A stretch of DNA of 63,900 bases, the filler included, from Craspedostauros australis (lineage: Eukaryota): NCBI GenBank assembly GCA_030167865.1. It is 19 parts of 19 records of this genome, joined end to end, with 100 filler letters (N's around TTAATTAATTAA, not from the genome) between each part and the next. Parts side by side here need not be neighbours in the genome. Positions count along the whole stretch, not along the records: positions 1 to 20,111 come from JALAGF010001483.1; 18 more parts are not named here. One strand, given 5' to 3'. How positions within the stretch are numbered: the first letter of the stretch is position 1; the number at the start of each line of letters is the position of its first letter. A model generated the notes under the pieces. It did not search any database and had not been told where the DNA came from. It saw only the letters and a list, made by a program, of their open reading frames with translations. The position numbers and the translations under genes are program-made. Of the stretch, positions 7,153 through 52,200 are shown piece after piece.

Positions 7153-9868
7153 TTAGTTGCAGTCGGTGCAGCAGGTGCACTCCGCTCCGCAAACATACTC
7201 AAGTTCCGACGCTGGGTTCCGGATTGTGCAGAATGTATCTTCGACCGCACCTGATTGAAGGGGATTCCCATCCAATTTGATCCACGACATCGAGGATGGC
7301 CAAGTTGTGTATGTTTCCGGGATGGTTCCGATGAATCCATTATCCGACAAGTCAACTTTGCCTGCAGAGGTGGATGTCGAGGTGACATGGCGTACATAGC
7401 ATTGGGGCAACGAGGAAAGAACGACAGCAATGAGGAGGCGTGGCGTGCAAGCGCAGATAGTGAAAACATGATCGCAACATCAAATCAAATCGGTAGAGTG
7501 TCGAGACGCGTGAGAGATGATCCGGTTCATGTCTACAGTGCTCCACGAAACACCAGTCATGCAAGCAACACAGCAGCAACAACGTCCATCCACCCCTCGA
7601 CGCACCCGCCGACATGAGTAATCCAGCCACCACCGCCACCACCGCCACCATACCAACAATGCACTTACGAATTTCTTGCAGACCTCCCAATTCGTCTGGA
7701 AGCTGACCAACCAACGAATTCTTCGGGACGTCAAGCTCGTCCAGCTCCACGAGCCTCCCCAACTCCGATGGCAGGGTCCCAACGAGGTAGGAGTCCTTGA
7801 AGTAGATCTTGGAAAGTCGCGTGCAGTTCCCGATTTCCGTCGGAATCGTTCCAGCAATCCCAGAGAAAGAGGTTCGGAGCTCCTGCATGTTGGTCAGCAG
7901 ACCGATGGTCGTCGGCAGGCCGACCTCGGCGGAGGAATCTCCGACCTGCAAATCTCGCTGTCGCAATCGAACCCTCTTGTTGCCACCGCCGAAGCTGGTG
8001 CGACCGGATTCGAATGGATTTTTGGAAACCTTGAGAGAGGCAATTCTAGTGAGCACACCGATCTCGGGTGGGATAGTACCTTTCAAGTTGTTGTCTGAAA
8101 TATCGAAATTGTTGACCAAGCCGTCTCCGTCACACGTGATTCCATGCCAAGTGCAAAAGCCTGCGCTCGTCAACCAGCCGGTGCTGGTAGTCCAGCTGGT
8201 ATCCCCTTCGGTGCTGTAGTAGATGCATGCTAACGCGTAACGTTCACGCGCCTTGGCCTTTGCAGGCCCAGCGTTGACAGGAATGTCATCCTCGGACGAA
8301 ATCCTGGTCAATGCCAGCCACTCGAATGCTTGGTATTGTGGCGATGATGTATCGTCGAGCGCTCCTGGGTTGACGGTAGCCATCTCCAATTTGAGCCAAT
8401 CCAGAAACTTGAAATGATGTGATTCAAGCTCTTGAGGTGCTTCCGTTGGGCCTGCAACTCCGTCGCTGTCGGTGGGCGGTGACGTCCTCTCACCACCAGC
8501 GTTGTCTCCGTTTCCAGTATCGCCGTTGCTGCTGCTGCTGCTCCCACTGTCGGCAGATCCCGTCAAAACAAACACGGCAGCGACGATGATGGCGATGACG
8601 AGACAAACGCAACAGATCAACAAGTAGAGGAGCGTCGTTCTCGATAGAAGCCCGTCGCCACCACTGCTGGTGTCGTCGTCCTCTTCCTCTTTCTTCTTTT
8701 TCTTTCTGTTGCTGTTGTTGTCGTTGCTATCGCCGTCTGCGTCTGCTTCGTTCACAACCGCCACGTCGGCATTGAGAGGTTCATCTTCCCGAATGGTCAT
8801 GACTTGGGTGGCCTGCACAGCATCGCCAATAATGTCCCTTCGGATCTGGTCCTCCAGATCGTCCGTTGCGACCGCGTTCGCAATCGAGAGCTGGGGCTGA
8901 TTGGGATTGGCATTTGATGCCTGAGACGTTCTGCTCTCCATGCCTTCGGATGCAACGGACGCAGGTCCAATTCTTTCCACGCGCGCAGATCGGGCGAGTG
9001 GCTGCACGGACGATGCGTCGCTGTCACGATGCGATTCCTTTGAGCTCATCGTGCGCACCGATGGATTCGTCGTGAACAAATTCTCTTCGTCGCTGTCGCT
9101 GCCTGCTGCTTTGAGATCTTCCTTCTCCTTCCTCTGCTTGCTTTCCGTCGGCGCAGGGTTGTTGGAATACATCGCGATCTTGGCATTGACGCCATCCGCA
9201 TAGTCTTCGCTCATCGGCGGAACGCCCGGTGCTGCCGCGTTCGTTGCGTTGGACGCCACCGTCGCACCATCGTCGTGTTGATTCGACAGCACCTGCGGTG
9301 ACCGAAGCGGCGAATGGGCGGTTGGTCTCGGCGAGACAATTGCGGCAGCCGCCCTGCGCTTCACATCGGCGTCGGTAAGTTTCCTGCCTCCCGAGGCGCT
9401 GTGGCCTCCTGCATTATTCGCACCAGTCTGCTGCATCTTGGCTCGGTGCCGTCGATCGTACGATCGAACCTCGCGAGCGCCCACTGTCACGTCGGATGCG
9501 CGTCGCGGAGAAACGGGGTCGCTGGCATTTGTTGTGACACTGGCAGTTGTTGTGACACTTGTTGCGATGCTCGCAGCAGCGCTCGAGCGATGTCCGGCCG
9601 TGAGGTCCAGGATCTGCTGGGATTGTTGGTACACCAGCGAATCCGTCTGCTGTCGCTGCAACTCCGACATCGCTTGCACATCGTCGGCGTGGTCATCCTG
9701 TGCAGCAGTGGCGGCCACAGACGGTACTCGTCGCGCTGCTGCTGTTGCCAGTACGCTCGGTGAAGACTGAAAGGCATTGTCGCTGTCATCCACGACGATC
9801 AAGGAGTCGCTGTTCAAGCGGACTCCGGCGCCAAATCCGTCGGTCGGTCTTCGTTGGTTGGATGGCAT
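7153..9868 (-). CDS. LRR type-II membrane protein, paralog 1 (exon 1 9868-7669, intron 7668-7362, exon 2 7361-7153)
   Basis: Disordered N-terminus, TM helix (LLYLLICCVCLVIAIIVAAVFVL), SPQYQAFEWL/ERYALACIYYST block, LRRNT (FCTWHGITCD), plant-type LRRs (GTIPTEIG). GTAAGT donor at 7668 and CTGCAG acceptor at 7362 join in phase 1 to a 209-bp exon ending CTCCTDCN*. Confidence 0.9.
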
Positions 9869-11046
9869 GCTGTTCTCGAGAGGGTTGATGGGATTGTGGT
9901 TGTTGGTCAACCAGCAACGTCTTCGCCAATCAGTTGCCTTCGCGATGACCTTCCCTTCTTCACTCTCTGCGGACGAGGAGCCCGTATCTTGGTTTTGTGT
10001 TCGTTGTGGCACTTTGTACAAGGATGCAAATTCGCTCCTGTGTGGCAGTTCGGGTGAACGGTGTCTTGTGTGGTTCTGTTGTCCAACAACAACGAACACA
10101 GCGGCAACCACACGCCACGCAGTTATTGTGTTGCGCCGACGTACCTGGGTATGCAGTTTTCCCCGTTCCGATTCCCACAAAAATACCTTGCGTAATCACG
10201 ATCAAGTTCCCCTTGAAGTAGATGCGACCAAGCTAGATGTAATGCAGATGCCTCCAATAGAATGTGTCTCCCAGCATCTATCTCATTCGCAACGTGCCAT
10301 GAACACCTCGCTATTCACTCCATTCCCAATGTCCCTCCTCGGTAATTCTGCTGCTGCTCCAGAGAGAGAGAGATATGTCGACCAACGGTCGGATACGAAT
10401 CCATAGAGCAACCTTCGTTCGCACATACTCGTACACCAATAAGTGCTGGGAGATCAGAACAGGGATCATCTGCAGTCTCTCCAAGCAAGCTCATCCCCTT
10501 GGTGGTCCTCTATCTATCTCTCCCTCCTTCGACCCTGGTCGTTTGAATGGGTGAGGTTGTCGGCGTGGTCAGCCTGTTGTTTGTGTTGTGCTCGTTCATG
10601 TCTGTCTGTTTGACATGTCGGCTGTCATTTCTGAATTGAGAATCCTCAAAACTGACGCGTCTTGTCTAAGCACGTTTGAAAATACACTGAAATCGAATAT
10701 AGACCAAGTAACAAGACAGGAATGGCTTGGATCGCTTCGGAACACGCCAATGACAAATCCAATTTCGTAGTCGCCACCAGCCTGACTATGACATCCATGG
10801 TACTACCTACATACCGCAAAAATGCAGTCACGATAGCACTAGTTGCAGAGTTTTGGCCCGTTTTGCACGCTGGTTTGCTCCGAATTGGTTGCTGTTGGGA
10901 GAAACAACGCTTATGCACGAAGAGCTATTTCATGACGTCTTCTGATCTGTCTTCTTCATCATGGGGAACGGATCCTATGTTGTAAAACACCAATCACAAC
11001 ACATTGTGGAACATCATCAGCTGCGTTGGCAAGTTCCATGATTGGA

Positions 11047-11400
11047 AACCTACGATCGTGGAAGACGGTGTTGGTTGATAGTCATTCTGTTTGCTACTTC
11101 ATTACGTTGGCACTCCAATCCTCTTGGTGTCCGTTCTCTTGCCCAATGCTCTTGGCGCGTCTGTCTGTTTTGTAGATTGGGTCTCCGACTATGAGTTGGT
11201 ACACAAGATGCTCTCTCGCTGCTATCGTATTCTCTCTCTCTCTCTCTCAATATCGCGTATTTGCACTACACAATACTCCATGTTCGATGCGTGCTCCGCA
11301 TTCGACACTCCGTTTGTTCACTACTGACTTCTACTCCATGAGTGCTTGCCACTTGAATTCCTCTTTGTGTATCCATGATCTTGATGCCCTTCAGTCATCG
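11047..11400. repeat. Interspersed non-coding repeat, copy 1 (homologous to 43063-43423)
   Basis: Colinear similarity starting AACCTACGATCGTGGAAG, with shared blocks such as TACTCCATGTTCGATGCGTGCTCCGCATTCGACACTC. Confidence 0.9.
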
Positions 11401-11839: not shown

Positions 11840-12109
11840 GTGTTGATTGTGGCCGATGCTGTGGCTGGAGTCCAAGTTGTTGGTTGTAGTTGATGTTGCC
11901 AATAGCCACAAGTTATTGATCTTCCTGAATGGTCCTACTAGTTGAAGATGCTTGTCTTCGACGATGTCACAGAAGAGAACTCTGTTGTTCTCGGAACATG
12001 TTTCCTTCTTGCTTCTTGTTGTGCGTGTGCAATTTCGTGATGGATGGGAACAGAAGGATCCAAATCACAAAAACCAGAGAGGGATGCGAGCAAGAGGAGA
12101 CAAACACAG
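11840..12109 (+). repeat. Conserved upstream module of the ankyrin-BTB family (copy A)
   Basis: Reverse-complement similarity to 40640-40950 and 37000-37270 (GAGAACTCTGTTGT, CAGAAGGATCCAAA, GTGGCTGGAGTC). Confidence 0.8.
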
Positions 12110-13187
12110 GATTCTATCTCCGGAGAGGGAACCACACATGCTCTCTGGTTCCATCTTGTCACACTGTGACATGGCAGCGACATGTTCGTTGCGATTCTGC
12201 GTGGTTCTGTGATTTGTCAGTCGTCAGGAGTAGAAGGAGCCGGTCTGAATGGTGTGTCAAGTCTAAAATGCCCAGAGTGAGGGCTCTTAGCGTTACAACT
12301 GGAGGTGGGTTGGCAGACCTGCCCCATGCACCTATTCGATATTGCATGAACTGTCACAAATATCTTTGATCACTTCCGGATCGTGTAGAGTTCTGCGTGG
12401 AGTGCTAGGTCTCCCCAGCACAAGAGTGTATCGCCACGAGTGAGGTCAGAGCTCGTCCCCCACATTCTGTACGAATTCCAAAAATGCTCATCTCAGGTTG
12501 TCTCTGGGTGGGTGAGTGTAAAGAAAAATCAACTGTCATCCACCACAAGAGCTTGATGGGTCAACCACAGTGAAATTCTGAGCTCATTCTTCTGGTTTCC
12601 TTTCTTCCGTTTGCTTCCGTCGCACCTTTCCATCCATTCTCTATTGTTGAGTAGCTTTGCCAGCCTGTGCATGTGCTCATTCTGCATGCCTATCTTTGCT
12701 TCCACAAGGTCCAACTTTTGCAGGGATAACCCAACACCCGGAGCATCACACAGTCGGTCTATTCTTTTGCTATCGCGGCTGTATGGACTGCTTGGACCTA
12801 ATGGCTAAGTTCCCGTCGTCGGCCAGGCGCCCGAAACCGGTCTCCAAAATACCACTCGGGATTTCCGGCAAACACAAAGCACAAAGATTCTGATGCACAA
12901 AGAGCCAAAGAGAGAAAGGGAGGACCATCCGAACAAAACCTCAAAACAACAAAGCACACCACTCAACACCATACTCGAGCACACCAACAACAGACATCAA
13001 ATTGCCACTCATACTCATATTCATGACACAGTGCATGGTACTCATACAAATAAAAGCCATCGAAGACACCACCATCGATATTTCTGCCATACTACTAGGC
13101 AGCTCAAACTGCACACTTCCTCAACAGCGAATCCAACACCAATCATCCAACGTCGATCACCCATCAACCATCGACCATCCTCTCAAA

Positions 13188-14246
13188 ATGCCAAATGTTA
13201 CGAACAAACAACTCATTCATGCTGCCAAGGCAGGTGACTTGTCGGTGTTGAAGGAATGGAAGAAGCAGAACGAGACGCAGAATAGAGGAGTTGATGTCAA
13301 CAAGGTTACAGACAACAATGGTTTCACTCCCCTTCATGAGGCATGTTACCATGGCCACCTGGAGTGTGTGAAATACCTCATCAAATCATGCGGGGCCTAC
13401 GCCGGCTGCGAAGACAAATGTGATTCCACTCCCCTTCATGGCGCATGCATAGAGGGTCACCTGGAGTGTGTGAAGTACCTCATCGAATCATGTGAGGCGG
13501 ACATCACCTGGGAAGACAGCGATGGTTGCACTCCCCTTCATGACGCATGCTGCAACGGCCACCTGAAGTGTGTGAAATACCTCATCAAATCATGTGAGGC
13601 GAACATCAACTGTGAAGACAACAATGGTGACACTCCCCTTCATGACGCATGCTACAATGGCCAGCTGGAGTGTGTGAAGTGCCTCGTCGAATCATGTGAG
13701 GCGGACATCAACTGCAAAAACAACGAAGGTTGGACTCCCCTTCATTCGGCATGCCACGATGGCCGCCTGGCATGTGCAAAGTACCTCATCGAATCATGTG
13801 GGGCCAACATCAACTGCAAAGATATCAATGGTCGCACTCCCCTTCATTGGGCATGCATGAACGGCCGCCTGGAGTGTGTGAAGTACCTCATCGAATCATG
13901 TGAGGCGAACATCGACTGCAAAGACGACGCTGGTTGCACTCCCCTCTATTGGGTATGGTACGGGGGCAACATGGAGTGTGTGAAGTACCTCATCGAATCA
14001 TGTGGAGCGAATATCAATGGCAAAAATAATGATGGTGACACTCTCCTTCATTGTGCATGCCAATGCCGCAAGATGGAGCTTATCGAGTACCTCATCGAAT
14101 CAGCCAATGCCGACATCGACATCCAAAACAACAACAACGAAACACCCCTCGAAATGATGGGTGCAGCGCATTACAACAAATTCAAGATATTGATCATGAA
14201 GCGTCCCAGGCACCGCAGCCTACAACTGCAACAACGCTTACAATAA
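13188..14246 (+). CDS. Ankyrin-repeat protein (8 x 34-aa repeats), copy A of ANK-BTB family, ending at a premature TAA
   Basis: TPLHxACxxGxLECVKYLIESC repeats at 102-bp period. Start MPNVTN corresponds to the starts of the paralogs at 40397 and 50933. Confidence 0.9.
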   Translation: MPNVTNKQLIHAAKAGDLSVLKEWKKQNETQNRGVDVNKVTDNNGFTPLHEACYHGHLECVKYLIKSCGAYAGCEDKCDSTPLHGACIEGHLECVKYLIESCEADITWEDSDGCTPLHDACCNGHLKCVKYLIKSCEANINCEDNNGDTPLHDACYNGQLECVKCLVESCEADINCKNNEGWTPLHSACHDGRLACAKYLIESCGANINCKDINGRTPLHWACMNGRLECVKYLIESCEANIDCKDDAGCTPLYWVWYGGNMECVKYLIESCGANINGKNNDGDTLLHCACQCRKMELIEYLIESANADIDIQNNNNETPLEMMGAAHYNKFKILIMKRPRHRSLQLQQRLQ

Positions 14247-15068
14247 AACGAGGAAGAGAATGAACAACTGCAACAACAGTTGAGACAGCAGTTGAAGCGA
14301 AAGAAGAGAATGAACACAAACACAATAGCCACAAGAGAACCACCATCAGCATCGGAAAAGACCGGCTTAGATCCTTTCATACCGAGAACAGGGCAGACAT
14401 CATCTTCTTGTGTGGACAGGGCAACGAACAGCAACGAATCAAAGCAAACGCTGAAGTCCTCATGGTCACTGTCCCATCCATTGAGACACTGATCGACAAA
14501 GCAATCCAACATCAGCACGCGAATGATGACACCCAAGACGGCGCGGCCCCATGCAAGTAACCATCCCCCTTCCCATTCTTCGACCAAAACATTCCAATAC
14601 ATCCTCCAATGCATCTACACAGGCAAAATACCCTTCAATGACAGCGCTCGTGACAACGCCGCCGCTCACATCGGCACTCACGCCAACACTCACCACGATA
14701 CAGATGCCTCTCACCAGCCAACTCCCATCTTCAATGGACACGACGATCTGCGACAGCTGATCCTTGTGGCCAACGAGTTCTGCTTCTAGCGACTCAAGCT
14801 TGTTCTTGAAGCGGAGTTGGTCCGTAAGCACATCACAAGGGACAACATGATAGTGATAGATGCATTGATATTCGCCGATCAACACAACTGCTTGGTGTTG
14901 AAGGATGCAGCAATGCGAATGGCAGCTGGAAGTGAGAAAGATATATTAACTCATCCAGATTTCAGCAAGCTGGTTCCACACCACCAACTGATGTTAGGTA
15001 TTCATGTCCTGTGCAGTGGGGGAGCTGAGAGTGATGTCATTGATAATGAGCACAGCCACATGTCCATG
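14247..15068 (+). pseudogene. Disrupted coiled-coil linker plus BTB/POZ-BACK domain of copy A
   Basis: Reconstructed DIIFLCG...FQYILQCIYTG...LILVANEFCF*RLKLVLEAEL...ALIFADQHNCLVLKDAAM, with about three frameshifts and TAG at 14787 where copy B has TGG. Confidence 0.85.
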
Positions 15069-15306
15069 TTGCCTCATCATCGTTGGAGCCAATTCAACAC
15101 ACGGGGTACGAACTATTTTCTGGCGCGCTGCAGCTGTCCGGGTACAACAGAATGTACTCGTAGTCAGCTTGATCGTCTAGTTGCAAAATTTCTTTACCCA
15201 TGGTGCCCTGATCTACTCCGTGTTTCTCACACTCCTCACGTATTACGTGAATCTTCAAAATCGTTGAGAACGTCATGACGCCGCCATGGGTTGAGCGGGC
15301 GCCTTT

Positions 15307-17955
15307 CTAGTCACACCCAGTGCAGCAGGTGCATTCCGCTCCACACATGAATGACATGGATACAGCCGGATTGCCAAGGCCGCAAAGTGTTTGCTCGACG
15401 GCTCCTTGGTCAAATTCATTACCTCCAAGCGAGATTCTATCCAACGGTGCTGGCCACTTGGTGTACGAGGCAGGGATGGTACCCTTGAGTTTGTTGTCGG
15501 ATACAACGAAGGTGGCTGTAGAAGTGACGTTGTTTGCATGTGGGCGGTGATTGATAATGAGATCTCAACAGAGGCAAAAAGCAGCAATGTGAGTGAGAAT
15601 CATAAACTGCACATGGTATGCACATGCAAGTACTCTGCACCATCCGATTGTCGTCCAGAACACCACCCAACGCGTCCGCAGACAGCAGGGCGGCAGCTCA
15701 ACCACCGTGCACCAGCACCACTTACAAATCGCAGGAAGGTCTCCCAATTCTGCCGGAAGCTGCCCAGTCATTGCGTTGTCGTGCAGATCCAAAGTTGTCA
15801 GAGCGTTTAGCTTGTCCATCTCGGACGGAATGGTACCCGCAAGACCAGCTTTCTTGAATAGGAATGCCGTGAGACTGGCGCAGTTGCCGATCTCGGTTGG
15901 AATGGGACTGGCGAAATTCGTATAGCCAATCCTTAGCTGTTCCAGATTCGTCAGCAGACCGATCGTTGTTGGTAGACCAGGTGGAATGGCGGAGATCTCA
16001 CTTGCCGTTGCGTTCAATTTCGGGTCTCCCGTGATACTGCCGCCGCTAAACGGATTCCTGGCCATGTTCACAGTCGTCATTGTTGTGAGGATCCCAATCT
16101 CTGGCGGAATGGTGCCCGTCAAGTTGTTGCTTGGCATCTTGAGAGCATCAACGAATCCATCGCTGTCGCAGAAGACGGTGCTCCAACTGCAGAAGTCTGG
16201 TTCAAGCAACCATTTGCTTTTGTCTGCCCATGTGGTATCCCCGTTGGTGCTGTAAAATATCGATGCCAACGCGTATCGCTGTTTCACATGCGATGCTGTG
16301 ATGTTCAGATTGCTGTCTGATGAGTCTATCGCACCATCGAAAAAGGCGACGTCTGACAGCAACCACTCCAATGCCCTGTACTGCGGTGATGATGCATCGT
16401 CCAAGATTCCCGGGTTAATGACTGCTGTCTCGGCTTTTAGCCACTCTGAGACTTGCGAACGGAGCACTTCAGGATCTTTCGTTGCATCCGTCGGACTGCT
16501 GGCCTCGGCTTTGTCTTTGTCTTGGTTGTCGCTACTACCCGAGGATAATTCAATAGACACGCCAACGGCAATGGCGATGAGCACCAGACAGATACCACCG
16601 ATGAGCATGTGCAGGCGTCTCTTCTTCACCATCTGTTGCTCGCTTGTTTTCTCGCCGATCTCGCTAGCTTGCTTCATCGTGGTGTTGCCAAGCACAGCGG
16701 CGTCGCCATCCGTAGTTCTGTCTTCGCGAATGGCCGTCACTTCCGTGGCATGGACGGCGCCGCCGATGATGGTCTGACGGATCTGCTCTTCGAGATCGTC
16801 GGTCGCGACGGCATTCGCGATGGACAACTGCACATCACCGACGCTGGATGTCTGGAGTCTCTCCGCTTCGATCTCGAACGGTCCGGATACCTCGGTTGGG
16901 TCTCTGTCTCCGCGAAGCGCGCCAATGAAGCATGGACTGCTGTTTGCGCTGCCCCGTGATTCAGCCAAACCAATGACACTGCCGTTCGGTGGAGCGCGAA
17001 AGAGATTCTCTTCGTCGTGACTTTGCCGTCTCTTGGCATCGCTTATAGTATCCTCCTCTGGTTCTTCATTCTTTTCATTTGGCCCGTTGCCGTCGTGCTG
17101 CTTCGTGGGCGTGTCATCGTTGTGAGAATACATGGCGATCTTGGCGTTGATTCCATCCACGTTGCCTTCCAGCATCTGCGAAATGCCGCTGGTGGATGGA
17201 TCGGCGCAGCCCCCTGAACGGTTTCTGTCCATCAACTGGTTTGGCAGGATCTTTTTGGCGCGTTGTGCTGAGCGGGGTGAGGATCCGTGGGTGGCAATTG
17301 CGCCAGCAAGAGCCGCGCTCTTGTTTTTGGGAACACCATCACTGCTTTTCTTGATCACGGTGGAGGCTGTCGAAGCACGGCTCTCTTGTTCCATCTTCGC
17401 CCGATAGGGCCGATCGTGCGATCTGGCTTGGCGGTTGTCGGTGGACACAGATGTCGATGGTGCGGACGAAAAGGAGCGGCTCGATCCACTTGCATTGTCA
17501 GCACTTTCATCTGCGGTGGGAATGCCAGACGACGAACCTACCGAACTGCGCCGGGTGCCCACACCGGTGGTGACAGAGGACCGCCCGTTCTGGTCACTTG
17601 TGAGATCAAGGATTTGCTGGGATTTGTGCCGGACCGACGGATCAGTTTGCTGACGTTCCAATTCGGAGGTCTCCGTCGCATTTGCGCCATTGTCATCGTT
17701 GTGATGGTCGCCGCTTTGGTCGGTGGAGGCTGAGATGGTCGTGCTCACGGTTTCTCCTATTGCGACTGTTGTTGTTGTTGCCGTTGAGGGTGCCGATTTT
17801 CCTTCTGCTTCTGCTTCATTTCCTGGTGGCTCCGCATTAGCTGGAGATGTATCCACGCCACGGTCGCTTCCGTCCATGATGATCAAGGAATCGCTGTCCA
17901 AGCGCATGGGAGCGCTTGGGTGATTGCCTTTAGCTGAACCTCTCAAGGTCGTCAT
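15307..17955 (-). CDS. LRR type-II membrane protein, paralog 2 (exon 1 17955-15726, intron 15725-15516, exon 2 15515-15307)
   Basis: Same architecture as paralog 1. GTAAGT donor at 15725, TACAG acceptor at 15516, 209-bp last exon STFVVSDNKLKGTIPASYTKWP...CTCCTGCD*. Confidence 0.9.
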
Positions 17956-18925
17956 CACTTCTGTTGTTGAGGGTGATAATGGTGATAAGGGGTTGACGGC
18001 GTTGGTGCTGACAATCTGGAGTATCAAGGCGGATGTTCCTGATTACGGACAACTGTTTTCCCAGCGAGTTTTGTCTGTGTGATGTTTCGCGACAAACAGC
18101 CCACGCGCTCCGATTTGGTAGTGGAACTTCGCGCGGTCACCTGTTGTGGCTTTTTTGCCAGGACTTTGAACACGAGACGCCGTGACGGTGCAGAACGCCG
18201 GTTGAAGCCATTCCTGTGGGCGATTCGTGTTCCTCCCTTCAAGCGCGTCGCGACATCCCCAACCGTTGGCGGCGAACACACCACCGAAGTTTCATCGGCG
18301 AACTTCAACATCTCCGCGTTTTTCTCCCCATCGGAGCGTGGTCCGAACCTTCAGGAACCTTGACTGGAACACCAGGGCAGCTGCCTGGCACCACAGACAC
18401 AGTCGCCCAACTACCAGATCTTGCAAACAGGAAACAGAAAACAACCACCTCATGCAGTATTCTGGCGCTTGTGTGATTGTGGTGGATGCATAGCAGTAGT
18501 AGCTCGTGGGCACAGGTTGGTCCCATTCGAGGATAGGAACAACACATGAACTTCCTCGCAGAGAGGAGTCGTATTGAAGGGAGCGGTCGTATGGTAGACA
18601 GATGTGCATAGCTCGTGGAGCACTCTAGATCGTACCGAGCCATTAGCATGTTCAGAAAGCGAGGCGCGATGCGGATGCTCGTACTGCTACCAATGCAGCC
18701 GCAGCATGCGTTCTGCGACATAGCGTCACCATGTTTGCGGATTTCAAAATTGGCAGTGCCTTTGCTACATTTAGGTTGGATAATACTTGTTATGAATCAT
18801 GGTCGCGCGTGTTGCGAATGCACCCATTGCCGTGGCCAACGGTGACAACAGCGAGGACGATGGTCAGAGCATCAACCTTGTGCTCCCATTCTCACCCCTC
18901 ACCGCGCCATACATATCGGTGGTCT

Positions 18926-19800
18926 CTAGTCGCAGTTAGTGCAACAAGTGCATTCCAACCCGCAGGCATACTGCAGCTGCTCGGCTGTATTATTGCGGGT
19001 GCAAAATGTTTCCTCCACAGTGCCTGCATCAAAAGCATTCCCGTCGAGCCGGATCGCAGTCATTCCGTCTGGCCAATTGGTGTAGGAGATGGGAATCGTA
19101 CCGTTGAATTGATTGCCACTGACATCAAAGAGAGCTGTGGAAGCAATGGTGTTTGCACGTGGGCGTGATTGGTGACGAGGTTGGAGCAGACACCAAAAGG
19201 AAGCAACGTTGGTGAGCATCATCATCTCTATTGTATAATACCATGCGTACGAGTATCCAAACTATTCCATCGTCGCCAAGGCATAGCATTCCATTCAAAT
19301 ACAGAGAGCAGAGCAGAGCAGAGCAAAGCGGAAGTTCCACCTATCCGTCCATCCGTCCATCCACCCATGCATGCGCGGTCACTCACATATTGCGGGAAGG
19401 TCTCCCAACTCTGCTGGCAGCTGGCCAGTCAAGAAGTTATCGCGTACATCCAAAGATGTCAAGCTAGCAAGCTTGCTCATCTCTGATGGAAGGGTTCCCA
19501 CGAGACCTGCATTCCTGAACAGGAATCCCGTGAGGCTTACGCAGTTACCGATTTCGGTTGGAATGGTGCCGCCAAAAGGACCGCGGGCAATTCTGAGTTG
19601 TTTCAGTTGCGTCAACAGACCGATCGTCGTCGGCAGACCGGCCTGAGCCGCACTTTTCGGTGCGTTCGGGTCCTGGTCTCCTGTGGTACTGTCGCCGTCA
19701 AAAGGATTTTTGGCCATGTTCACCGTCATTATCGTTGTGAGGAGCCCGATTTCGGGTGGGATGGTGCCCACCAAGTTGTTGTTGCGTAGATCCAGCAAGA
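18926..19800 (-). pseudogene. LRR paralog 3, 3' part only (exon 19800-19387, intron 19386-19135, exon 19134-18926), interrupted by unrelated sequence
   Basis: NNNLVGTIPPEIG..GTIPTEIGNC..GQLPAELGDLPAI, GTGAGT donor, 209-bp last exon ending CTCCTNCD*. LRR homology stops at about 19800. Confidence 0.85.
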
Positions 19801-24570: not shown

Positions 24571-24671
24571 NNNNNNNNNNNNNNNNNNNNNNNNNNNNNN
24601 NNNNNNNNNNNNNNTTAATTAATTAANNNNNNNNNNNNNNNNNNNNNNNNNNNNNNNNNNNNNNNNNNNNC

Positions 24672-26195
24672 GCTGACTTCCTCGATACCTCTGAAGAGGA
24701 GTTCGAGGCTGTCTTGGACGGCTGGAAGTCTGGCTCCATCACTCGTTGTTTCGGACTCCGCAATCTTCGCGCATACGCGGAAGCGAACCCTGATTTCGAC
24801 GCGTGGTTCACCACACTGGAACGCCCCGTGCTCCGCGCATTCGGCAAGGCCAAAAAGCCTCCCGCTATTCGCGACAAGCCTCCTCCTGAGGACCATGGTA
24901 CCCTTGCATCTGGCGGTGCCACCGACGATGCCCGTCTCTCCGAGCATGGTGATACCTCTACTCCCCGCGGTGACACACCCGTCGCAGCCGCAGGCCGTGG
25001 TATTGGCACCAGCGATGCTCCTCTTGATGTTGGTGACGAGCCAGCGCATGCCGTCGACTTCATCACCGGCTCTGGCCTTACCTACGCCATGGCGCGCAAC
25101 AACCCTGCCACTCTTCCTCATTTTCACTTTGAGGAGGTCCCCATGGTCACGGAGCCCTCGTACGCCGCCATTGGCTACTGGCAGCGCTGGGAGCTGAAGC
25201 TTGCTGGAGACGCGCCCGCTGGAGTGCTCAAGTGGTACACACAGCTCCAAGCCGAGGCTGCTGGTGTGGATATCCACATCTGTCCACTTTCCGCGTTCAG
25301 TCCGCAGTGCTCCATCATTCCGCGCAACGCTTCACGCGAGCGTGTCATCCGCGCCGGCGAGTGGCTCAACAAGAAGTTACAGCAGAAGGACATCCTCGAT
25401 CTGAGCGACCCTGCCATCTCCCTATTCTATTCTGGGACNTTTGGCATGTCGCCACATCACTTGTCGTCCTTCCTTTTCCTTCATCAAGTGCTCTCCGACG
25501 CNTACATGCGTGTTGCCAACACCGTGAGCCANGCGCCTGAGTATGGCGATTCACAAGATGTCNTCAAGTTTGCCACGGCGTTGTTGGAGTTCCAGCAGAC
25601 CGAGAGTGTCGTTCACCGTCGCACGATCACTGACGTGGAGCTCTCCCGCCGATTCCTCGAAGGTCTTCGCTCCCACCACATGCCTGTGGAACACCATATC
25701 ACTTCCCTGTCCCTGGTGCCAGGCAACAAGCGCGTACCTACCCACCTACATGTGTCGGCTCTTGCCCGTACCATCAGAGGTGATCCCACTACCGCGACGT
25801 CCAATGTTGGCCACCGTGTGCAAACACGTTCGTCTGGGAAGTCTGGTGGTGATGGTAAGCGTGGCGAGCGCAAGCGATCCGAGTTCTACCAACCCGACAA
25901 GGATGCATTCTGTTCCGCATGCCACCGCAAGGGACATCATGCGCGCAGCTGCCTTCCATGGGCGCGTGATCTGCGTTTCGCGGAGCTCCGTGAGTCCGAG
26001 CCTGACCTTGCTGCGAAGGTTCTCAAGACGTACAAAGAGGTCTACTCCAGCGAGCGTGCAAGCACCGTTGCCAGGGCTATCGCACTTGTCCATCATGGGC
26101 GTGACTCGGCGAGCGACGACGGCGACAGTGGCAGCGATGATGAGCGCACGGCGCAGATCCTGTTCCAGGATTTTATTCTCGCCGGCCGGAAGTAG
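24672..26195 (+). mobile_element. gag: Ty1/copia (CoDi-like) gag, 5'-truncated by contig end
   Basis: Open frame from contig start, zinc knuckle CSACHRKGHHARSC (CX2CX4HX4C), directly upstream of pol. Confidence 0.85.
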
Positions 26196-27087
26196 AGCGA
26201 CTCTCCGGTGAACGGCTACTACCCGTTACTCGCCCATGCGGGATGCAAAAAGGCACGCCCACCAGCGTTGCGTCTCCGCTACAAACTGCCTCAACCCAAG
26301 TGCAAATCACGGGACCGGATCGTTTCATGACGTCAACGACAGTCCCGCTCCGTGCAAATGCACTTGCAGGGTCTCGCGACGACGAATGGCGCCACCGAAT
26401 CCATGGTCAGTGTGATCTCGGTGCCAATGTTTGCGCGACTCCGCATGCGCGTCTCCTCTGTGACTACACCGCATTTACTACTCCTTCCAGCCTTGCAGCA
26501 GCGGACTCATCTTCGCCTGCTATGGAGTGCCCGGGAGAAGGGTACATGCGGCTATCATGTGGCGACGGCGCGCATCTTTCGGTGCACACTCTTCTGTGCC
26601 CACGGCTGGCAGACACGCTTGTGTCGCCACAGTCCATCATCAAGCAATGTGACAACCCGTACACCAGCTTTGGCATCGAATCCACCCAGCACAGTGCTCA
26701 CATCGTCTTCAAGTCTCCGGATGGCAATCTTCGAGTACCGCTGTACATTCGCAACGGTCTGTACTTCTTCGGAGGCGTTCGTCCACACGCCATGACCTTG
26801 AGACAGGCATCGCCTACGCTCCTGTCGGAACTTTGGCATCTACGGCTTGGGCATGTGGGCATGGCGCAACTGCAGAAGCTTTCCAAATGCTCCACTGGTA
26901 TCCCGGCATCTGTTACAAAGCACATTCATCCGCTTCGACACTGTGACACGTGCAGCAAGGCAGGATATCAGCATGCCACACGCGGCCCCAATGACACGGC
27001 CACAGCCAATGTTGCTGGCGCTCGATTCCACGTCGACTTTGGGTTCATGAGAGCCACTGACGATGCGTACGGCCAGCGCAAGAAGTC
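26144..27087 (+). mobile_element. pol: Ty1/copia pol in the -1 frame (protease, GAG-pre-integrase, start of integrase), 3'-truncated
   Basis: CDLGAN protease-like motif, LWHLRLGH...CDTC zinc-binding domain, FHVDFGFMRA integrase start. The frame is open from 26144 and overlaps the gag end. Confidence 0.9.
26168..26222 (+). promoter_or_regulatory. Candidate -1 ribosomal frameshift signal (G_GAT_TTT plus downstream stem-loop/pseudoknot)
   Basis: Heptamer in the correct gag phase, 6-nt spacer, then GCCG/CGGC and GCCGGA/TCCGGT arms. Second copy at 28685. Confidence 0.75.
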
Positions 27088-27187
27088 NNNNNNNNNNNNN
27101 NNNNNNNNNNNNNNNNNNNNNNNNNNNNNNNTTAATTAATTAANNNNNNNNNNNNNNNNNNNNNNNNNNNNNNNNNNNNNNNNNNNN

Positions 27188-28744
27188 CGCTGACTTCCTC
27201 GATACCTCTGAAGAGGAGTTCGAGGCTGTCTTGGACGGCTGGAAGTCTGGCTCCATCACTCGTTGTTTCGGACTCCGCAATCTTCGCGCATACGCGGAAG
27301 CGAACCCTGATTTCGACGCGTGGTTCACCACACTGGAACGCCCCGTGCTCCGCGCATTCGGCAAGGCCAAAAAGCCTCCCGCTATTCGCGACAAGCCTCC
27401 TCCTGAGGACCATGGTACCCTTGCATCTGGCGGTGCCACCGACGATGCCCGTCTCTCCGAGCATGGTGATACCTCTACTCCCCGCGGTGACACACCCGTC
27501 GCAGCCGCAGGCCGTGGTATTGGCACCAGCGATGCTCCTCTTGATGTTGGTGACGAGCCAGCGCATGCCGTCGACTTCATCACCGGCTCTGGCCTTACCT
27601 ACGCCATGGCGCGCAACAACCCTGCCACTCTTCCTCATTTTCACTTTGAGGAGGTCCCCATGGTCACGGAGCCCTCGTACGCCGCCATTGGCTACTGGCA
27701 GCGCTGGGAGCTGAAGCTTGCTGGAGACGCGCCCGCTGGAGTGCTCAAGTGGTACACACAGCTCCAAGCCGAGGCTGCTGGTGTGGATATCCACATCTGT
27801 CCACTTTCCGCGTTCAGTCCGCAGTGCTCCATCATTCCGCGCAACGCTTCACGCGAGCGTGTCATCCGCGCCGGCGAGTGGCTCAACAAGAAGTTACAGC
27901 AGAAGGACATCCTCGATCTGAGCGACCCTGCCATCTCCCTATTCTATTCTGGGACTTTTGGCATGTCGCCACATCACTTGTCGTCCTTCCTTTTCCTTCA
28001 TCAAGTGCTCTCCGACGCGTACATGCGTGTTGCCAACACCGTGAGCCAGGCGCCTGAGTATGGCGATTCACAAGATGTCGTCAAGTTTGCCACGGCGTTG
28101 TTGGAGTTCCAGCAGACCGAGAGTGTCGTTCACCGTCGCACGATCACTGACGTGGAGCTCTCCCGCCGATTCCTCGAAGGTCTTCGCTCCCACCACATGC
28201 CTGTGGAACACCATATCACTTCCCTGTCCCTGGTGCCAGGCAACAAGCGCGTACCTACCCACCTACATGTGTCGGCTCTTGCCCGTACCATCAGAGGTGA
28301 TCCCACTACCGCGACGTCCAATGTTGGCCACCGTGTGCAAACACGTTCGTCTGGGAAGTCTGGTGGTGATGGTAAGCGTGGCGAGCGCAAGCGATCCGAG
28401 TTCTACCAACCCGACAAGGATGCATTCTGTTCCGCATGCCACCGCAAGGGACATCATGCGCGCAGCTGCCTTCCATGGGCGCGTGATCTGCGTTTCGCGG
28501 AGCTCCGTGAGTCCGAGCCTGACCTTGCTGCGAAGGTTCTCAAGACGTACAAAGAGGTCTACTCCAGCGAGCGTGCAAGCACCGTTGCCAGGGCTATCGC
28601 ACTTGTCCATCATGGGCGTGACTCGGCGAGCGACGACGGCGACAGTGGCAGCGATGATGAGCGCACGGCGCAGATCCTGTTCCAGGATTTTATTCTCGCC
28701 GGCCGGAAGTAGAGCGACTCTCCGGTGAACGGCTACTACCCGTT
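27188..28744 (+). mobile_element. gag: Second, essentially identical copy of the copia gag region (24671-26227)
   Basis: Identical protein at offset 2517 nt. Ns of the first copy are resolved here. Same left edge, so probably redundant assembly. Confidence 0.9.
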
Positions 28745-29104: not shown

Positions 29105-29827
29105 ATGTCAATGTTCCGCAATCACAAGATCCGCGTGGCCGCCTTCGTCCTGTTCCTCGCCACAGCGACGAAGGGCAACGTCAACCATGATGGGAATGTC
29201 GGAGGCGGCGGAACAGCAGCGGTGCTGGCATCGCCAACAGCACCAGGATCCGTCTCCATCCACAGCTCGTCGCTTTCCGTAGAGGGCGTGCACCTGCCCG
29301 ATTCGCACGTCCTGGACGGAGTCATGCTGCAACGCAACGGTCATGGCATTCGGTCCATCAACTTCTTCGGCTTTGAGATCAAGGCCTACGTGGCTGGACT
29401 GTACACAGAGGTGACGGTGAATTCGGAGGAGGACGTGCTGTCGTACCTGGAATCCGGCAGTCCCATGATCTTCGATTGCACATTTCTCAAGAGCGTTGGA
29501 CAGGGTCGTGTGACCTCAGCGTGGGAGCAGCAGCTGGAGTACAGCGTGACGCATCGGTACGACCACTACGAGAAGGACAGGGATCGGTTCATCGGCATGT
29601 TCGGTCCCATCAAGGCATACGGCAAGGAGATGATGCAGCTGATCGGCGACGAGACGGTGGTGTACGACCAAGGCCAGCGGAAGGGGTCCATCCCCGGCAG
29701 GGACTTTCAGCGTGCGTTCCTGAGCATGTGGTTTGGCGAGAAGGCCGTGGCGGACGATCTGAAGCGGGGCCTGCTGGGTGAACTGAATTCCAATAGCAAG
29801 ATGAAGCTGGCCGTTGTGGAAGCATGA
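29105..29827 (+). CDS. Chalcone isomerase-fold protein with N-terminal signal peptide
   Basis: LQRNGHGIRSINFFGFEIKAYVAGLY and GSIPGRDFQRAFLSMWFGEKAVADDLKRGLLG match the CHI-like family. Hydrophobic N-terminus. Confidence 0.85.
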   Translation: MSMFRNHKIRVAAFVLFLATATKGNVNHDGNVGGGGTAAVLASPTAPGSVSIHSSSLSVEGVHLPDSHVLDGVMLQRNGHGIRSINFFGFEIKAYVAGLYTEVTVNSEEDVLSYLESGSPMIFDCTFLKSVGQGRVTSAWEQQLEYSVTHRYDHYEKDRDRFIGMFGPIKAYGKEMMQLIGDETVVYDQGQRKGSIPGRDFQRAFLSMWFGEKAVADDLKRGLLGELNSNSKMKLAVVEA

Positions 29828-30234
29828 TGGGCGAGCAGAATTGGCTTGATTGCATTGCGCTCTGTTTGGCAGGGTTGCGAGTGTCAGTAGCGACACCAAT
29901 CATCGTATGGTAGAGCAGAGCGAGTTGCCGCCGCTACATACACAACAGATTCGAGGAACTGAAGTTCATTTTGAGTGCTGAAGTTGAACAGAATCATAAT
30001 GGAACTGTAGCCCTATTTATGCGAGAGAAGGGTAATGTGGCTATCATTGAGCGTACTCCCATGGTATGAATCTCCAGTTTGCTCCCAATCAAATGGAACG
30101 GAGCGGAGCTAAATGAAAACCCAGGCGGCGTCACAAACAGTGTTGGCGTCAGGACGGTGAGAAAGTCGAAGTATAGTGCACTCCTCTTTCTTCTTGTTCC
30201 TTGCTTGATTTCGCCTGCTCTACTCTACTCTACT

Positions 30235-31437
30235 CTACCTGCGCCTCAACAAACCTTTCGACAGCTTTGCTGCCGCGTACTTGAACGATCTGCTGAATCC
30301 GAGAGTGAAGATGCCCTTCATGGATTGATATCTGGCTGGTTTGCCCACGGTGTCTTCCAGCTTGGACATCAGCCGTTGCTGCGCATCTCCATCGAACTTC
30401 ACCGCATTCGTTCTTGTTGGCATGTTTGCGTTTGCGTTTGCGTTCGTTAGCGGCTTTCGACTCTCTGTCGATGCGGTTGATTCATGCACCGACGAATTCA
30501 AGGCCTGGAAGGAAGGCGGCAAGCATTCCCACAGGCAGCGCCGAGCCGCGCTACTCTTGCAATCCCACTCCACGCCAGCATCGCTCAGCTGCAACACTCC
30601 CTGAGTTTCCAGCGTCTGCGTAACTGAAGATTGACGATACATGGAGTGGAAGCGATCCAGCTGACCGGGTGCTTGGATCAGCTTCGTCACCTTCAATGGA
30701 TCTTCTCCCCCAACCTTCATCCGAAAGTCGCCCGTGTAGCTTAACGAAGCAATCTGCATGTACAGCTTGGACCATGGGGTGGTGCCACTCTGATCTCCAA
30801 TATCCTTCGATGGACCTGCATCCGCGTCCTCATGATCGTTTCCATCCAACAACAGCAGCGACGCCGCCACTGCCGACCGCAGGTTGGTCTCCTGCGCATC
30901 CACAAACTCGTCCGGCACCGGTGTCATGATCGGCAGCGTGGGCTTGTGCAACCGACCTGCCAGATACAGCGCGTTCCACTGCAACAGATCCGCTCGTAGA
31001 TCATCCCATTGCACAATGCCGTACTTCATGGCCACGGGATCATCCACCACGTGGAACAGAACCTTGGCATCGGGCAGCGACCGCTGCAGCGTGGTTGCAA
31101 TGGCTGGACCTGACCAGCGCAGCCAGGGCGTGTAATGCTGGGGGTTCTGCTGGATGTTCTGCTCGTGGAAACGATGAGCATCGTCCACAACCAGGATCAT
31201 GTCGATCATGCCGCCGGCATGCGCTTGCGCTTGGATGTTCTGAGAGAAGACGCCGGATCCGTATCCAAACGCATGCATCAGATGGTGCTGTGGGAAGTGC
31301 CCGATGATGTCGCTGAGCTCATCGTGGGATGCAAGCTGTCCAGCATCCTTCATCCTTCTGTTCGTGTCGCTGATGGCAACGTCAGTGTGATGCGGACTTC
31401 GATTGCAGATGTATAATACATAGACCGCTTGCTTCAA
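30235..31437 (-). CDS. TAM41: Mitochondrial phosphatidate cytidylyltransferase Tam41/Mmp37 (start uncertain)
   Basis: AFGYGSGVFSQ, MIDMILVVDD, KYGIV, LYLAGRLHKP, LSYTGDFRM, GEDPLKV, and C-terminal KYAAAKLSKG. Confidence 0.92.
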   Translation of the reverse strand: MKQAVYVLYICNRSPHHTDVAISDTNRRMKDAGQLASHDELSDIIGHFPQHHLMHAFGYGSGVFSQNIQAQAHAGGMIDMILVVDDAHRFHEQNIQQNPQHYTPWLRWSGPAIATTLQRSLPDAKVLFHVVDDPVAMKYGIVQWDDLRADLLQWNALYLAGRLHKPTLPIMTPVPDEFVDAQETNLRSAVAASLLLLDGNDHEDADAGPSKDIGDQSGTTPWSKLYMQIASLSYTGDFRMKVGGEDPLKVTKLIQAPGQLDRFHSMYRQSSVTQTLETQGVLQLSDAGVEWDCKSSAARRCLWECLPPSFQALNSSVHESTASTESRKPLTNANANANMPTRTNAVKFDGDAQQRLMSKLEDTVGKPARYQSMKGIFTLGFSRSFKYAAAKLSKGLLRRR

Positions 31438-31644
31438 TGGAGAGTACGAATGTGGTTAATTCGCTGTTGTTGGTCGAGGAGGAGGATTGTCAACGTCGCA
31501 GAACACAACGATGAGGAGCTGAAGTGATGCCGACGGAACATTTCNNNNNNNNNNNNNNNNNNNNNNNNNNNNNNNNNNNNNNNNNNNNTTAATTAATTAA
31601 NNNNNNNNNNNNNNNNNNNNNNNNNNNNNNNNNNNNNNNNNNNN

Positions 31645-32707
31645 TGCGTTGACTTCGTTGATGAGTTGTTGCATGGGGATGAGGGCACGCATGGCAAGAG
31701 ACAGCGCGGCGTATTCCGACTCCATTGTCGATAAGGCAATCTCTGTCTGCAGTTTCGATTTCCACACGAGCGGGCAGCCACCGAGGATGATGACGTAGCC
31801 GGTACGTGAGCGTACTGCGTTGGGAGAATCGTCGGACTCGCGCTTGTACAGACCAGCGAAATCGGCATCGACGTAACACTCCAAGTTGAGTTGGCCCGTT
31901 GGTCGTACGATAGTGCCCATGGTGTTTGTGTGGCGGAGGTATCGCACGATCATCTTGATGGCCTTTGCATGCGGTTGGCGGGGGTCGTTGCTGAATCGGG
32001 CCACTTGAGATACGGCGAAGGCCAGGTCGGGGCGTGTGTTCGTAGTCAAGTAGAGCAGCATGCCCACGATGGAGCGGTAGTTCCATGCTTCCTTCATTGG
32101 CGGTTGGTCGGTTGAGGCGCCGAGGGCAAGTTGTGTTGTTGGTGTTACGTTTGGTTTGCAATGCTGCATGCTGGTGGCCTCGATGATCTTGTTGATTAAT
32201 CCGGTCTGCTTGAGGTGGATGGTGTTGTTTTTGGGGTCTCGGTGTAGCGATATTCCCAGGAACTCCGTGAACGTGCCCTCTCGTGTGAGATCAAATCCGC
32301 GCTTGCGCATGGACTCGATGAATGCGTCTGCCTCTTCTTCCGTACGCGAAGCGATGCCAGCGTCGTCCACGTAGAGAACGATCATCATGCCGTCTCGCAT
32401 GAACAGGCACTTCTCTTGGTCACACGCACGAAACCCTTCCGCAAGGAGGGCGCGCACGAGGTGCTGATACCATAGCTTGGGAGCTATAGTTAGGCCGTAA
32501 AGGCTTTTAATCAGCTTGAGGCACGTGTCAGGTCCATTCGTCGATCGGAAGCCGCGAGGAAGGTGTAAGTAGACAGGCCGGTGGATGTCGGCTTGGACGA
32601 ACGCGTTCGAAAAATCGATCGACGTCGTGACCCAGCGGAGCAAAATGGAAAGGATGAGAAAGACGCGGACGGATGACCATGCGACAACCGGAGCGTAGGT
32701 TGCCTCC
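31645..32707 (-). mobile_element. pol: Ty1/copia reverse transcriptase-RNase H, internal fragment, frame intact
   Basis: TYAPVV, DFSNAFVQ, KSLYGL, YVDD, TRPDLAFAV, YVDADFAG, SRTGY, IALSTMESEY. Confidence 0.95.
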
Positions 32708-36420: not shown

Positions 36421-36996
36421 NNNNNNNNNNNNNNNNNNNNNNNNNNNNNNNNNNNNNNNNNNNNTTAATTAATTAANNNNNNNNNNNNNNNNNNNNNNNN
36501 NNNNNNNNNNNNNNNNNNNNATCCTGGACCGCTGACCAACACACCACCCGAAGCATAATGAAGCGACGAATACAACCATGCCATTCACTTGAGCAATTGA
36601 CGAAGCAGATTTGGATGCGGGTCTTTGGAAGGCAGTCGGTCGCTATTGGACCAAAACGCCACAAATTTCTGTACCAGAACGTCGTAGACTCTACGTGGTT
36701 ACCAATGGTTACCAACGAAAAAATTCCGAAATCGCGTNCGTACGTCGTCCGTGCGAAAAAGGCCGATAAAGGGTAAAAAGAGGCANCGAGATGAACGGAA
36801 AGCGGAGATCGTTTGCCAACAATGAACACATCAACAGAGAGCTCTCACTCTCCTCTTTCTAATAATGTAAAGATGTCAGGCAACGGCCATCAACTCATCG
36901 AATGGTTGCTTGTGCCGTCGGCGATATGCCAATGGTTACCAATAATTACCAATAATTACCAAAAAACCGTAAATTAGCCAATAGCCACTAGTAGTA

Positions 36997-52165: not shown

Positions 52166-52200
52166 ACACAAACGCAGCAGCAACAAGAGGACCAACATCA

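Follow-up and report, generated by a model that had tools for sequence, protein, structure and literature searches.

Ankyrin (ANK) repeats and a BTB domain are known to share one chain in animal ABTB1, ABTB2 and BTBD11 and, in reverse order, in plant NPR1 and BOP, all of which are single-copy conserved regulators with few ANK repeats. In SPOP and BPM proteins the substrate-binding domain is MATH, and the BTB domain of these proteins is the classical chassis of Cullin-3 (CUL3) adaptors; a study from 2006 reportedly described expanded, fast-evolving MATH-BTB families in nematodes and plants. In libraries of designed ankyrin repeat proteins (DARPins) positions 2, 3, 5, 13, 14 and 33 are randomised and position 10 is a fixed Leu. 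The randomised positions form the paratope, as stated in the portion of the source used here (PMC8683736). Pathogen defence has been hypothesised for expanded F-box and MATH-BTB families, on evidence which the cited portion of that work itself calls indirect (PMC1866355). In fungal NLRs (the Podospora HNWD/het-e family and others) near-identical ANK, TPR or WD repeats differ in a few hypervariable codons under positive selection, which in ANK repeats map to the concave face, i.e. to the beta-hairpin together with the helices on the inner side; repeat-number polymorphism and concerted evolution accompany this pattern, and rapid diversification of non-self recognition was proposed (PMC4986451, in the sections cited here). 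According to the same sections, repeats with such high internal conservation, i.e. those which are more than 85% identical to each other over 100 aa or more, are rare, at 0.4-1.2% of repeats in plants, animals and dikarya (PMC4986451). Here we describe a family of ANK-BTB sequences of the diatom Craspedostauros australis (assembly GCA_030167865.1), three copies of which, A, B and C, are situated in the analysed 63.9-kb stretch of DNA, called the window throughout.

The window is not a single locus, since it consists of 19 contigs joined by N44-TTAATTAATTAA-N44 spacers, and the three copies are found on three of these contigs. We consider the three loci to be birth-and-death members of a diversifying diatom family, probably of CUL3 adaptors in which ankyrin repeats replace MATH, and assign to this reading a probability of roughly 0.6. 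The copies and their open ANK parts are as follows.

Contig 1 (1-20111), plus strand: copy A.
Contig 10 (36521-41142), minus strand: copy B.
Contig 14 (50419-54982), plus strand: copy C.
13188-14246, plus strand: open ANK reading frame of copy A, 352 aa, with N-cap (13188-13310), eight 102-bp repeats (13311-14126), C-cap and TAA (14244-14246).
40397-39555, minus strand: open ANK reading frame of copy B, 280 aa, with N-cap (40397-40275), six repeats (40274-39663), C-cap and TAA (39557-39555).
50933-52165, plus strand: open reading frame of copy C, 410 aa, with N-cap (50933-51055), ten repeats (51056-52075) and then a Gln-rich linker.

The original prediction of three paralogs on three contigs with a common N-cap and 8, 6 and about 10 repeats was borne out, the repeats numbering 8, 6 and 10 in a perfect 34-residue register after the N-cap. 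The N-cap has 41 aa in every copy and a nucleotide identity of 0.89-0.93 between copies; overall, A, B and C share 76-82% of DNA in pairwise comparison over 1.0-1.6 kb, and no intron is evident in any of them. A half-repeat C-cap is present in A and B and there is none in C, the tenth repeat of which is divergent. In Tandem Repeats Finder the arrays have a unit of 102 bp and 7.3, 5.6 and 9.7 copies (A, B and C, respectively), and Pfam Ank, Ank_2 and Ank_4 match all three with expectation values (E) of 1e-60 to 1e-163. A search with the ANK open reading frame (ORF) of copy A gave 1340 matches at E<=1e-20 among 8000 candidates, and the 120 listed were all generic ANK proteins with 26-44% identity, which made this search uninformative for the family. 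In the full-length model of P0004, an intact relative presented below, the ANK part is modelled at a predicted local distance difference test (pLDDT) value of ~85-97, and its top fold matches are ankyrin-1 and DARPins, the latter heading the solved relatives of the ANK part as well. In protein, repeats C1-C6 (204 aa) are on average 88% identical to each other (range 82-94%), and the corresponding mean is 73% for the whole of C, 57% for A and 56% for B. Copy C alone approaches the 85% criterion of the fungal NLR repeats. The repeats of A and B are often nearest to repeats of C and not to their own neighbors.

With the leading Asp of the repeat taken as position 1, the 24 repeats of A, B and C have a Shannon entropy of 1.8-3.0 bits at positions 2, 3, 5, 10, 13, 14 and 16, the highest value being that of position 10 (2.99 bits), and of at most 0.5 bits at G4, TPLH (6-9), A11, C12, G15, L17, C19, Y22, L23, I24 and S26. 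The seven variable positions make up the beta-turn and one face of helix 1, which is where variation had been predicted to concentrate. The parallel with DARPin libraries, i.e. a fixed framework with variable beta-turn and helix 1, holds for positions 2, 3, 5, 13 and 14, all of them among the seven most variable here, and fails for position 10, which is the most variable one in this family, and for position 33, which is only moderately variable (1.52 bits). The family also differs from DARPins in having a 34-aa instead of a 33-aa repeat, in the variability of position 16 and in a Cys-rich framework (C12, C19, C27 and C33). Variability of surface positions is common to all ankyrin repeats; the unusual part here is the pattern in the DNA. 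Nucleotide identity of the framework averages 0.82-0.88 and reaches 0.93-1.00 between best partners, in accordance with the claim that the framework is nearly fixed at the DNA level, whereas in the seven variable codons it is 0.38-0.75. In the pair A4 and C1, for example, 96% of the framework bases are identical as opposed to 52% of the variable-codon bases.

Rates of change were counted by parsimony and by pairwise comparison of paralogous repeats. The Nei-Gojobori method applied to all 276 repeat pairs gives a nonsynonymous rate (dN) of 0.78 in the variable codons, a synonymous rate (dS) of 0.196 in the framework and a framework dN/dS of 0.85. Because repeat pairs are not independent, we added tree-based parsimony counts. 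Codon parsimony on FastTree repeat trees yields 99-130 nonsynonymous changes per 17.8 variable sites as compared with 33.5-35 synonymous changes per 18.0 framework sites, which is a ratio of 3.0-3.75 in relation to framework dS and 2.3-3.1 in relation to pooled dS (binomial P 5e-9 to 1e-14). Overall, the nonsynonymous rate at the variable positions is ~3-3.8 times the synonymous rate of the framework. This faster change of the binding face points to diversifying selection, probably acting together with repeat duplication and exchange. In the way it diversifies, the family most resembles the fungal NLR repeats with high internal conservation, with which it shares a nearly fixed DNA framework, hypervariable binding-face codons with a nonsynonymous rate above framework dS, and differing repeat number. 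The difference is that these repeats belong to a diatom and are joined to a BTB adaptor, whereas those of the fungi are joined to a NOD/NACHT ATPase that carries a death effector.

The same pattern could be explained without any positive selection if unequal crossing-over and gene conversion homogenised the repeats and lowered the apparent framework dS, while unconstrained surface positions kept older differences. Repeat number does differ between the copies (8, 6 and 10), C1-C6 are 82-94% identical and repeats of A and B often have their closest counterparts in C, all of which is in accordance with such exchange; concerted evolution is also documented for the fungal NLR repeats, in the sections cited above (PMC4986451). 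However, the variable codons are situated 3-9 nt from framework codons, and conversion would homogenise both unless selection removed its products. All 21 of the 21 variable-codon nucleotide columns vary in A and B as against 52 of 81 framework columns, and even in the youngest repeats (C1-6 and C9) the variable codons are ahead, with 8 of 21 columns compared with 10 of 81 (Fisher P 0.01). A hand count of the 98 variable residues of A and B found 7 Trp and 8 Tyr, which also weighs against exchange alone. We regard an origin of the pattern by exchange without positive selection as unlikely.

Downstream of the array the family continues into a Gln-rich linker, a low-confidence helix in the model of the relative P0003 (pLDDT 40-62) and disordered in that of P0004; its earlier label as a coiled coil was not confirmed, no predictor of such helices having been run. 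A word-indexed search with the C-terminal part of copy B found P0003 (366 aa, 71% identical, UniRef: Craspedostauros australis) and P0004 (607 aa, 48%), and a search for shorter relatives with the same part gave 4 fragments only. Both P0003 and P0004 are open through linker, BTB and BACK, i.e. they are intact ANK-BTB fusions, and five further intact fusions were found beside them. P0003 carries a single ankyrin repeat, possibly as a result of a collapsed transcript assembly. When 1.84 billion cluster representatives were searched exhaustively with HMMER, the 209-aa ORF of copy B gave 77 matches at E<=1e-3, 18 at E<=1e-10 and 7 at E<=1e-30, and with 18 clusters at E<=1e-10 this specific BTB/BACK type is rare outside the source organism. 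Pfam was scanned in 24 of the best 30 of these matches, six short fragments being left out. Seven of the nine best full-length matches are ANK plus BTB with the BTB above the Pfam cutoff, the two without ANK being P0128 and P0134, and 12 of the 15 next matches are MATH plus BTB, often with a BPM/SPOP BACK domain. None of the 24 is of the ABTB1, ABTB2, BTBD11, NPR1 or BOP type. The BTB scores of relatives (PF00651, cutoff 20.5 bits) are 28.9 for P0004, 33.0 for P0126, 29.8 for P0129, 34.4 for P0130, 28.0 for P0132, 32.1 for P0133, 24.0 for P0127 and 20.0 for P0003. Neither in A, B and C nor in P0003 and P0004 did Pfam give a match to MATH. Among solved relatives, human SPOP (P0134, E 1.5e-5) is the nearest in sequence.

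The AlphaFold model of P0003 has a mean pLDDT of 78.5, with BTB/BACK blocks mostly at 88-96, and we used it for the fold search because the full-length model of P0004 returned ANK proteins only. First among its matches is the human SPOP BTB 4j8z (E 2.3e-7, target TM score 0.84), followed by KEAP1, KBTBD2/4 and KLHL11, all of which are Cullin-3 adaptors; the alignment with SPOP spans 231 columns and takes in the helices after BTB. This fold is that of the model of P0003, which is 71% identical to B, and not of the broken copies of the window. In the full-length model of P0004 a confidently predicted ANK solenoid is followed by a disordered linker, by BTB with BACK-like helices and by helices of the tail. 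The whole architecture is common to relatives at 42-54% identity, and the alignment of 12 family proteins contains a conserved C-tail, DDEYSxMSMxELY...YMDRxxLLxFVRS, beyond BACK, which is missing from A and has lost its end in B. Judged by sequence relatives and predicted fold, the C-terminal module appears to be a BTB of the SPOP/BPM kind with 3-box/BACK, in line with the BTB-BACK assignment of the original prediction.

SPOP/BPM proteins are the closest in BTB plus 3-box/BACK both by sequence and by fold, they too have the substrate-binding domain N-terminal to BTB, and both families are multi-copy. The family described here differs in having an ankyrin array instead of MATH, an extra conserved C-tail and a long variable BTB insert. 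We see in it an analogue of predicted Cullin-3 function whose recognition domain has been exchanged, and not a member of MATH-BTB. Five parts make up the intact protein: the N-cap, 34-aa ankyrin repeats in variable number, a linker of low complexity, an SPOP-type BTB with 3-box/BACK helices and a conserved acidic/hydrophobic C-tail. The ankyrin array occupies the place which the substrate-binding MATH domain has in SPOP/BPM proteins, and the family would therefore most likely act as substrate adaptors of the BTB type for a Cullin-3 ligase. The concave ANK face would choose the target, BTB/3-box would dock on Cullin-3, and ANK-bound targets would be presented for ubiquitylation, with the variable face tracking changing targets.

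The BTB/BACK sequence said to be retained in A and B is indeed present in both, broken by stops and frameshifts. These downstream parts are:

14247-15083, plus strand: decayed Gln-rich linker and BTB/3-box/BACK remnant of copy A, with 3 frameshifts and, counting the TAA at 14244, 2 stops.
38691-39554, minus strand: linker and BTB/3-box/BACK of copy B, in the same frame as its ANK part.

The frameshifts of copy A are located near 14294-14303 (4 bases missing in comparison with B), near 14555 and near 14591, which takes the frame from 3 to 2 to 1 and back to 3 against P0003. A TAG at 14787-14789 stands in place of a conserved Trp, and family homology ends at ~15083. Copy B has four in-frame stops (TAA 39557-39555, TGA 39548-39546, TAA 39404-39402 and TAG 39353-39351); read through with X at these stops, it is a single frame of 568 codons with the stops at codons 281, 284, 332 and 349. 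Its last 209 codons are open (38691-39320) and the tail diverges ahead of the YMDR..LL.FVRS motif. In copy C the frame runs into TGA 52163-52165 owing to one additional base near 52148, and family homology ends at ~52202, beside retroelement-like ORFs. Two of the frameshifts in A and the one in C are in short homopolymer runs and might be assembly errors. We take the three loci for pseudogenes or for derivatives reduced to ANK, and not for working adaptors. Intact ANK-BTB fusions, which had been predicted, do exist as P0003, P0004 and the five others, and not among the three copies of the window. In the birth-and-death turnover proposed here, all three copies have lost the BTB half, via stops and frameshifts (A and B) or via a frameshift and loss of homology (C), and the ANK-only frame of each has stayed open.

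An intron that would remove the four stops of B was rejected by eye, as the one GT..AG pair tried joins out of frame. It is further disfavoured since it would delete the first BTB strand, situated between the third and fourth stops, and this stretch is collinear with P0003. A variant genetic code with TAA and TAG read as Gln was rejected on account of the in-frame TGA in B and the frameshifts in A and C, and also because standard-code ORFs of 820 and 942 aa are located nearby and paralogs in the sequencing run X1, described below, read CAA and TGG at the stops of A.

All 10 of the 10 lesions fall within ~1826 nt downstream of the arrays and none in the 3126 nt of ANK (P of none under uniformity ~4e-8, conditional P 4.6e-5). 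Single steps that lead to a stop are no scarcer among ANK codons, B having 126 of them in ANK as compared with 36 in its linker and 64 in its BTB/BACK part. The first lesion of each copy is at a different site, ~1-30 codons past the array. In B all four stops are within 69 linker codons and three of them are C>T changes in Gln codons, a clustering with P ~1e-3 even when transitions are weighted. This asymmetry could mean that ANK-only proteins are kept by selection, that intact paralogs repair the arrays by conversion, or that the copies serve as sequence donors, and we make no choice among the three.

Evidence on the size of the family was drawn from public protein collections and from X1, the sole public run with matches, which shares 0.11 of words and consists of contigs. 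Its 30,610 contigs include 1168 that match 12900-15400 (copy A) at a likeness of at least 80% (91 at >=99%, 235 at 95-99%, 415 at 90-95% and 427 below 90%). Single sites outside the repeats, e.g. 13193, 14781, 14788 and 14916, are covered by 27-35 different contigs, and therefore at least some thirty sequence variants are present, which supports the prediction of a large family. A 310-base contig of X1 matches the flank 15206-15400 without difference, so the run holds the same or a very close organism. Cover rises at ~13152 and stops at ~15083, which is the gene and little more; the depth of 0 at 15084-15167 proves nothing. At 14244 X1 has C (CAA, Gln) in 10 of 10 contigs and the TAA of A in 0 of 10, at 14788 it has G in place of A in 27 contigs (25286 of 25305 depth), and behind 14591/14592 there is one extra base in all depth at that site. 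X1 thus reads intact letters at the lesions of A, which indicates that these defects are private to A. Some low-depth reads of X1 are compatible with copy A's own letters at 14788 and 13346.

These low-depth reads, together with the lesion-free 3126 nt of ANK next to 10 lesions in ~1826 nt, the undiminished number of one-step stop paths in ANK codons and the three different sites of the first lesion shortly after the array, would also fit the idea that the ANK-only proteins are functional products kept by selection after the loss of BTB, for example as BTB-less binders that mask the targets of full-length adaptors or compete for them. It is at odds with a framework dN/dS of 0.8-0.9, i.e. little purifying selection, and with the lack of A's TAA at 14244 in all 10 contigs of X1; gene conversion from intact paralogs could equally keep the arrays open, and the argument is built on three loci only. 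We consider functional ANK-only products doubtful.

Several observations weigh against our view that the three loci belong to a diversifying family which probably consists of CUL3 adaptors. Pfam BTB is below its cutoff in the window, with 19.2 bits for B read through, 16.9 bits for the B ORF and no match in the pieces of A. BACK_BPM_SPOP (PF24570, cutoff 27.4) scores 16.5-20.6 bits in the window copies and 16.5-22.2 bits across these and near relatives, and rises above the cutoff in the next tier of sequence relatives. The loop of SPOP before the 'RVEI' strand carries a Cul3-contact motif, and the equivalent loop in this family is a variable insert modelled at low confidence (pLDDT<50, P0004 399-409). 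The framework dN/dS given above also fits relaxed constraint. Synonymous change within the variable codons is high and the within-codon ratio is just 1.0-1.6, on ~3 synonymous sites and multi-hit codons. The repeats are non-independent, and exchange between them can depress framework dS. No fusion among the three copies being intact, present function of the A, B and C loci is unproven, and X1 is only guessed to be RNA.

The surroundings of the three copies contain the following features.

7352-10180, minus strand: ORF of 942 aa with a leucine-rich repeat (LRR) match, on one side of copy A.
15565-18027, minus strand: ORF of 820 aa with an LRR match, on the other side of copy A.
11940-12067: fragment of a dispersed ~400-bp repeat, ~1.1 kb upstream of copy A.
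37052-37443: the dispersed ~400-bp repeat downstream of copy B (82-91% identity for the repeat).
40771-41142: the same repeat upstream of copy B.
52307-54922, minus strand: two ORFs beside the end of copy C, 257 and 592 aa, retroelement-like by sub-threshold matches only.

The two copies of the ~400-bp repeat around B are direct repeats spaced by ~3.7 kb, and the two ORFs beside C score 17.9 bits with zf-RVT (cutoff 27.5) and 15.7 bits with RNase_H (cutoff 25.8). One could suppose from this that the copies are not host genes and have been carried along by a mobile element or an integrated virus: the dispersed repeat flanks B and is also found upstream of A, retroelement-like ORFs abut C, the copies are situated on small repeat-rich contigs and the family unit in X1 (~13152-15083) equals the gene alone. 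On the other hand, copy A is located in a 20-kb contig between LRR-type host-like genes, there is no transposase, gag/pol or viral hallmark inside the repeated unit, and the flanks of A, B and C are unrelated apart from the dispersed repeat. The architecture that relatives at 42-54% identity have in common suggests an old cellular family, and a passenger origin appears extremely unlikely to us. A tandem gene array in contig 10 was rejected, since only the ~400-bp repeat recurs there and the 5' part of the gene does not.

By eye, the 820-aa LRR ORF has a hydrophobic stretch, a possible membrane span that gives it a receptor-like look. The setting of copy A between two LRR-plus-transmembrane ORFs is suggestive and proves nothing. 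A third LRR fragment at 19380-19781 is 74% identical to part of the second LRR ORF. Another dispersed repeat, of 380 bp and 84% identical, occurs both in the intergenic region 11025-11400 upstream of copy A and at the end of contig 11 (43041-43423). Retroelement pieces are abundant in the window, with a Copia-type gag-pre-integrase ORF and an RVT_2 reverse-transcriptase ORF on small contigs (26243-27139 and 31597-32643). Contigs 4 and 5 are 99.7% identical duplicates (24671-26227 and 27188-28744), and the start of contig 12 (43524-43963) is the exact reverse complement of the start of contig 13 (44680-45119; 100% over 440 bp), which is probably assembly redundancy or an unresolved join. At 34362-35463 a long array of CAGCATCA-like units with periods of 16, 24 and 40 and 73-78% matches gives rise to spurious long ORFs, and at 61255-63694 there is a 72-bp tandem array of ~34 copies (88% matches), in which several frames are open on both strands with ORFs of 561-605 aa; the single ORF of it that was scanned had no Pfam match. 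Housekeeping-type genes on other contigs (29105-31437 and 46753-48408) are a chalcone-isomerase-like ORF, a Tam41-type mitochondrial phosphatidate cytidylyltransferase and a PX-BAR sorting-nexin-like ORF.

No description of an ANK-BTB family in diatoms was found among the papers listed by our literature searches, as judged by titles and the starts of abstracts. The genome paper of the benthic diatom Seminavis robusta reports expanded BTB/POZ families, and the word 'ankyrin' has 0 occurrences in its main text (PMC7335047). According to the portion of that paper used here, these families are strongly expressed in sexual stages and belong to the genes with high piN/piS (PMC7335047). The E3 adaptor mechanism might thus be the same and its purpose not defence: it could serve in sexual reproduction, e.g. 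in the recognition of mating types or gametes, or in another form of endogenous regulation such as control of the cell cycle. The same portion does not say that the S. robusta families carry ANK repeats (PMC7335047); a reproductive or regulatory role is possible in our view, if less than probable, and a role in sexual reproduction is no less plausible than one in defence.

As for the family of probable CUL3 adaptors, a role in defence is a matter of pure inference. One could go further and imagine dozens of ANK-BTB adaptors with DARPin-like faces, quickly diversified by repeat duplication and exchange together with selection, which tag foreign (viral, parasitic or transposon-derived) proteins for degradation, with the BTB-less copies and their clean ANK arrays acting as donor cassettes for gene conversion, like the pseudogene V segments of birds, or as decoys. 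This more elaborate scheme we consider very unlikely as a whole.

Defence and self/non-self recognition of diatoms are almost unknown at the molecular level, and the family described here sets a fast-changing, antibody-like ankyrin surface on the chassis of a ubiquitin-ligase adaptor. If our reading is true, it would be a concrete and testable candidate for a system that recognises viruses, parasites, bacteria or mating partners. The combination of near-identical repeats and a small number of hypervariable codons, described so far mainly for fungal NLRs, would moreover be extended to another eukaryotic supergroup, in which the signalling output would be degradation instead of cell death.

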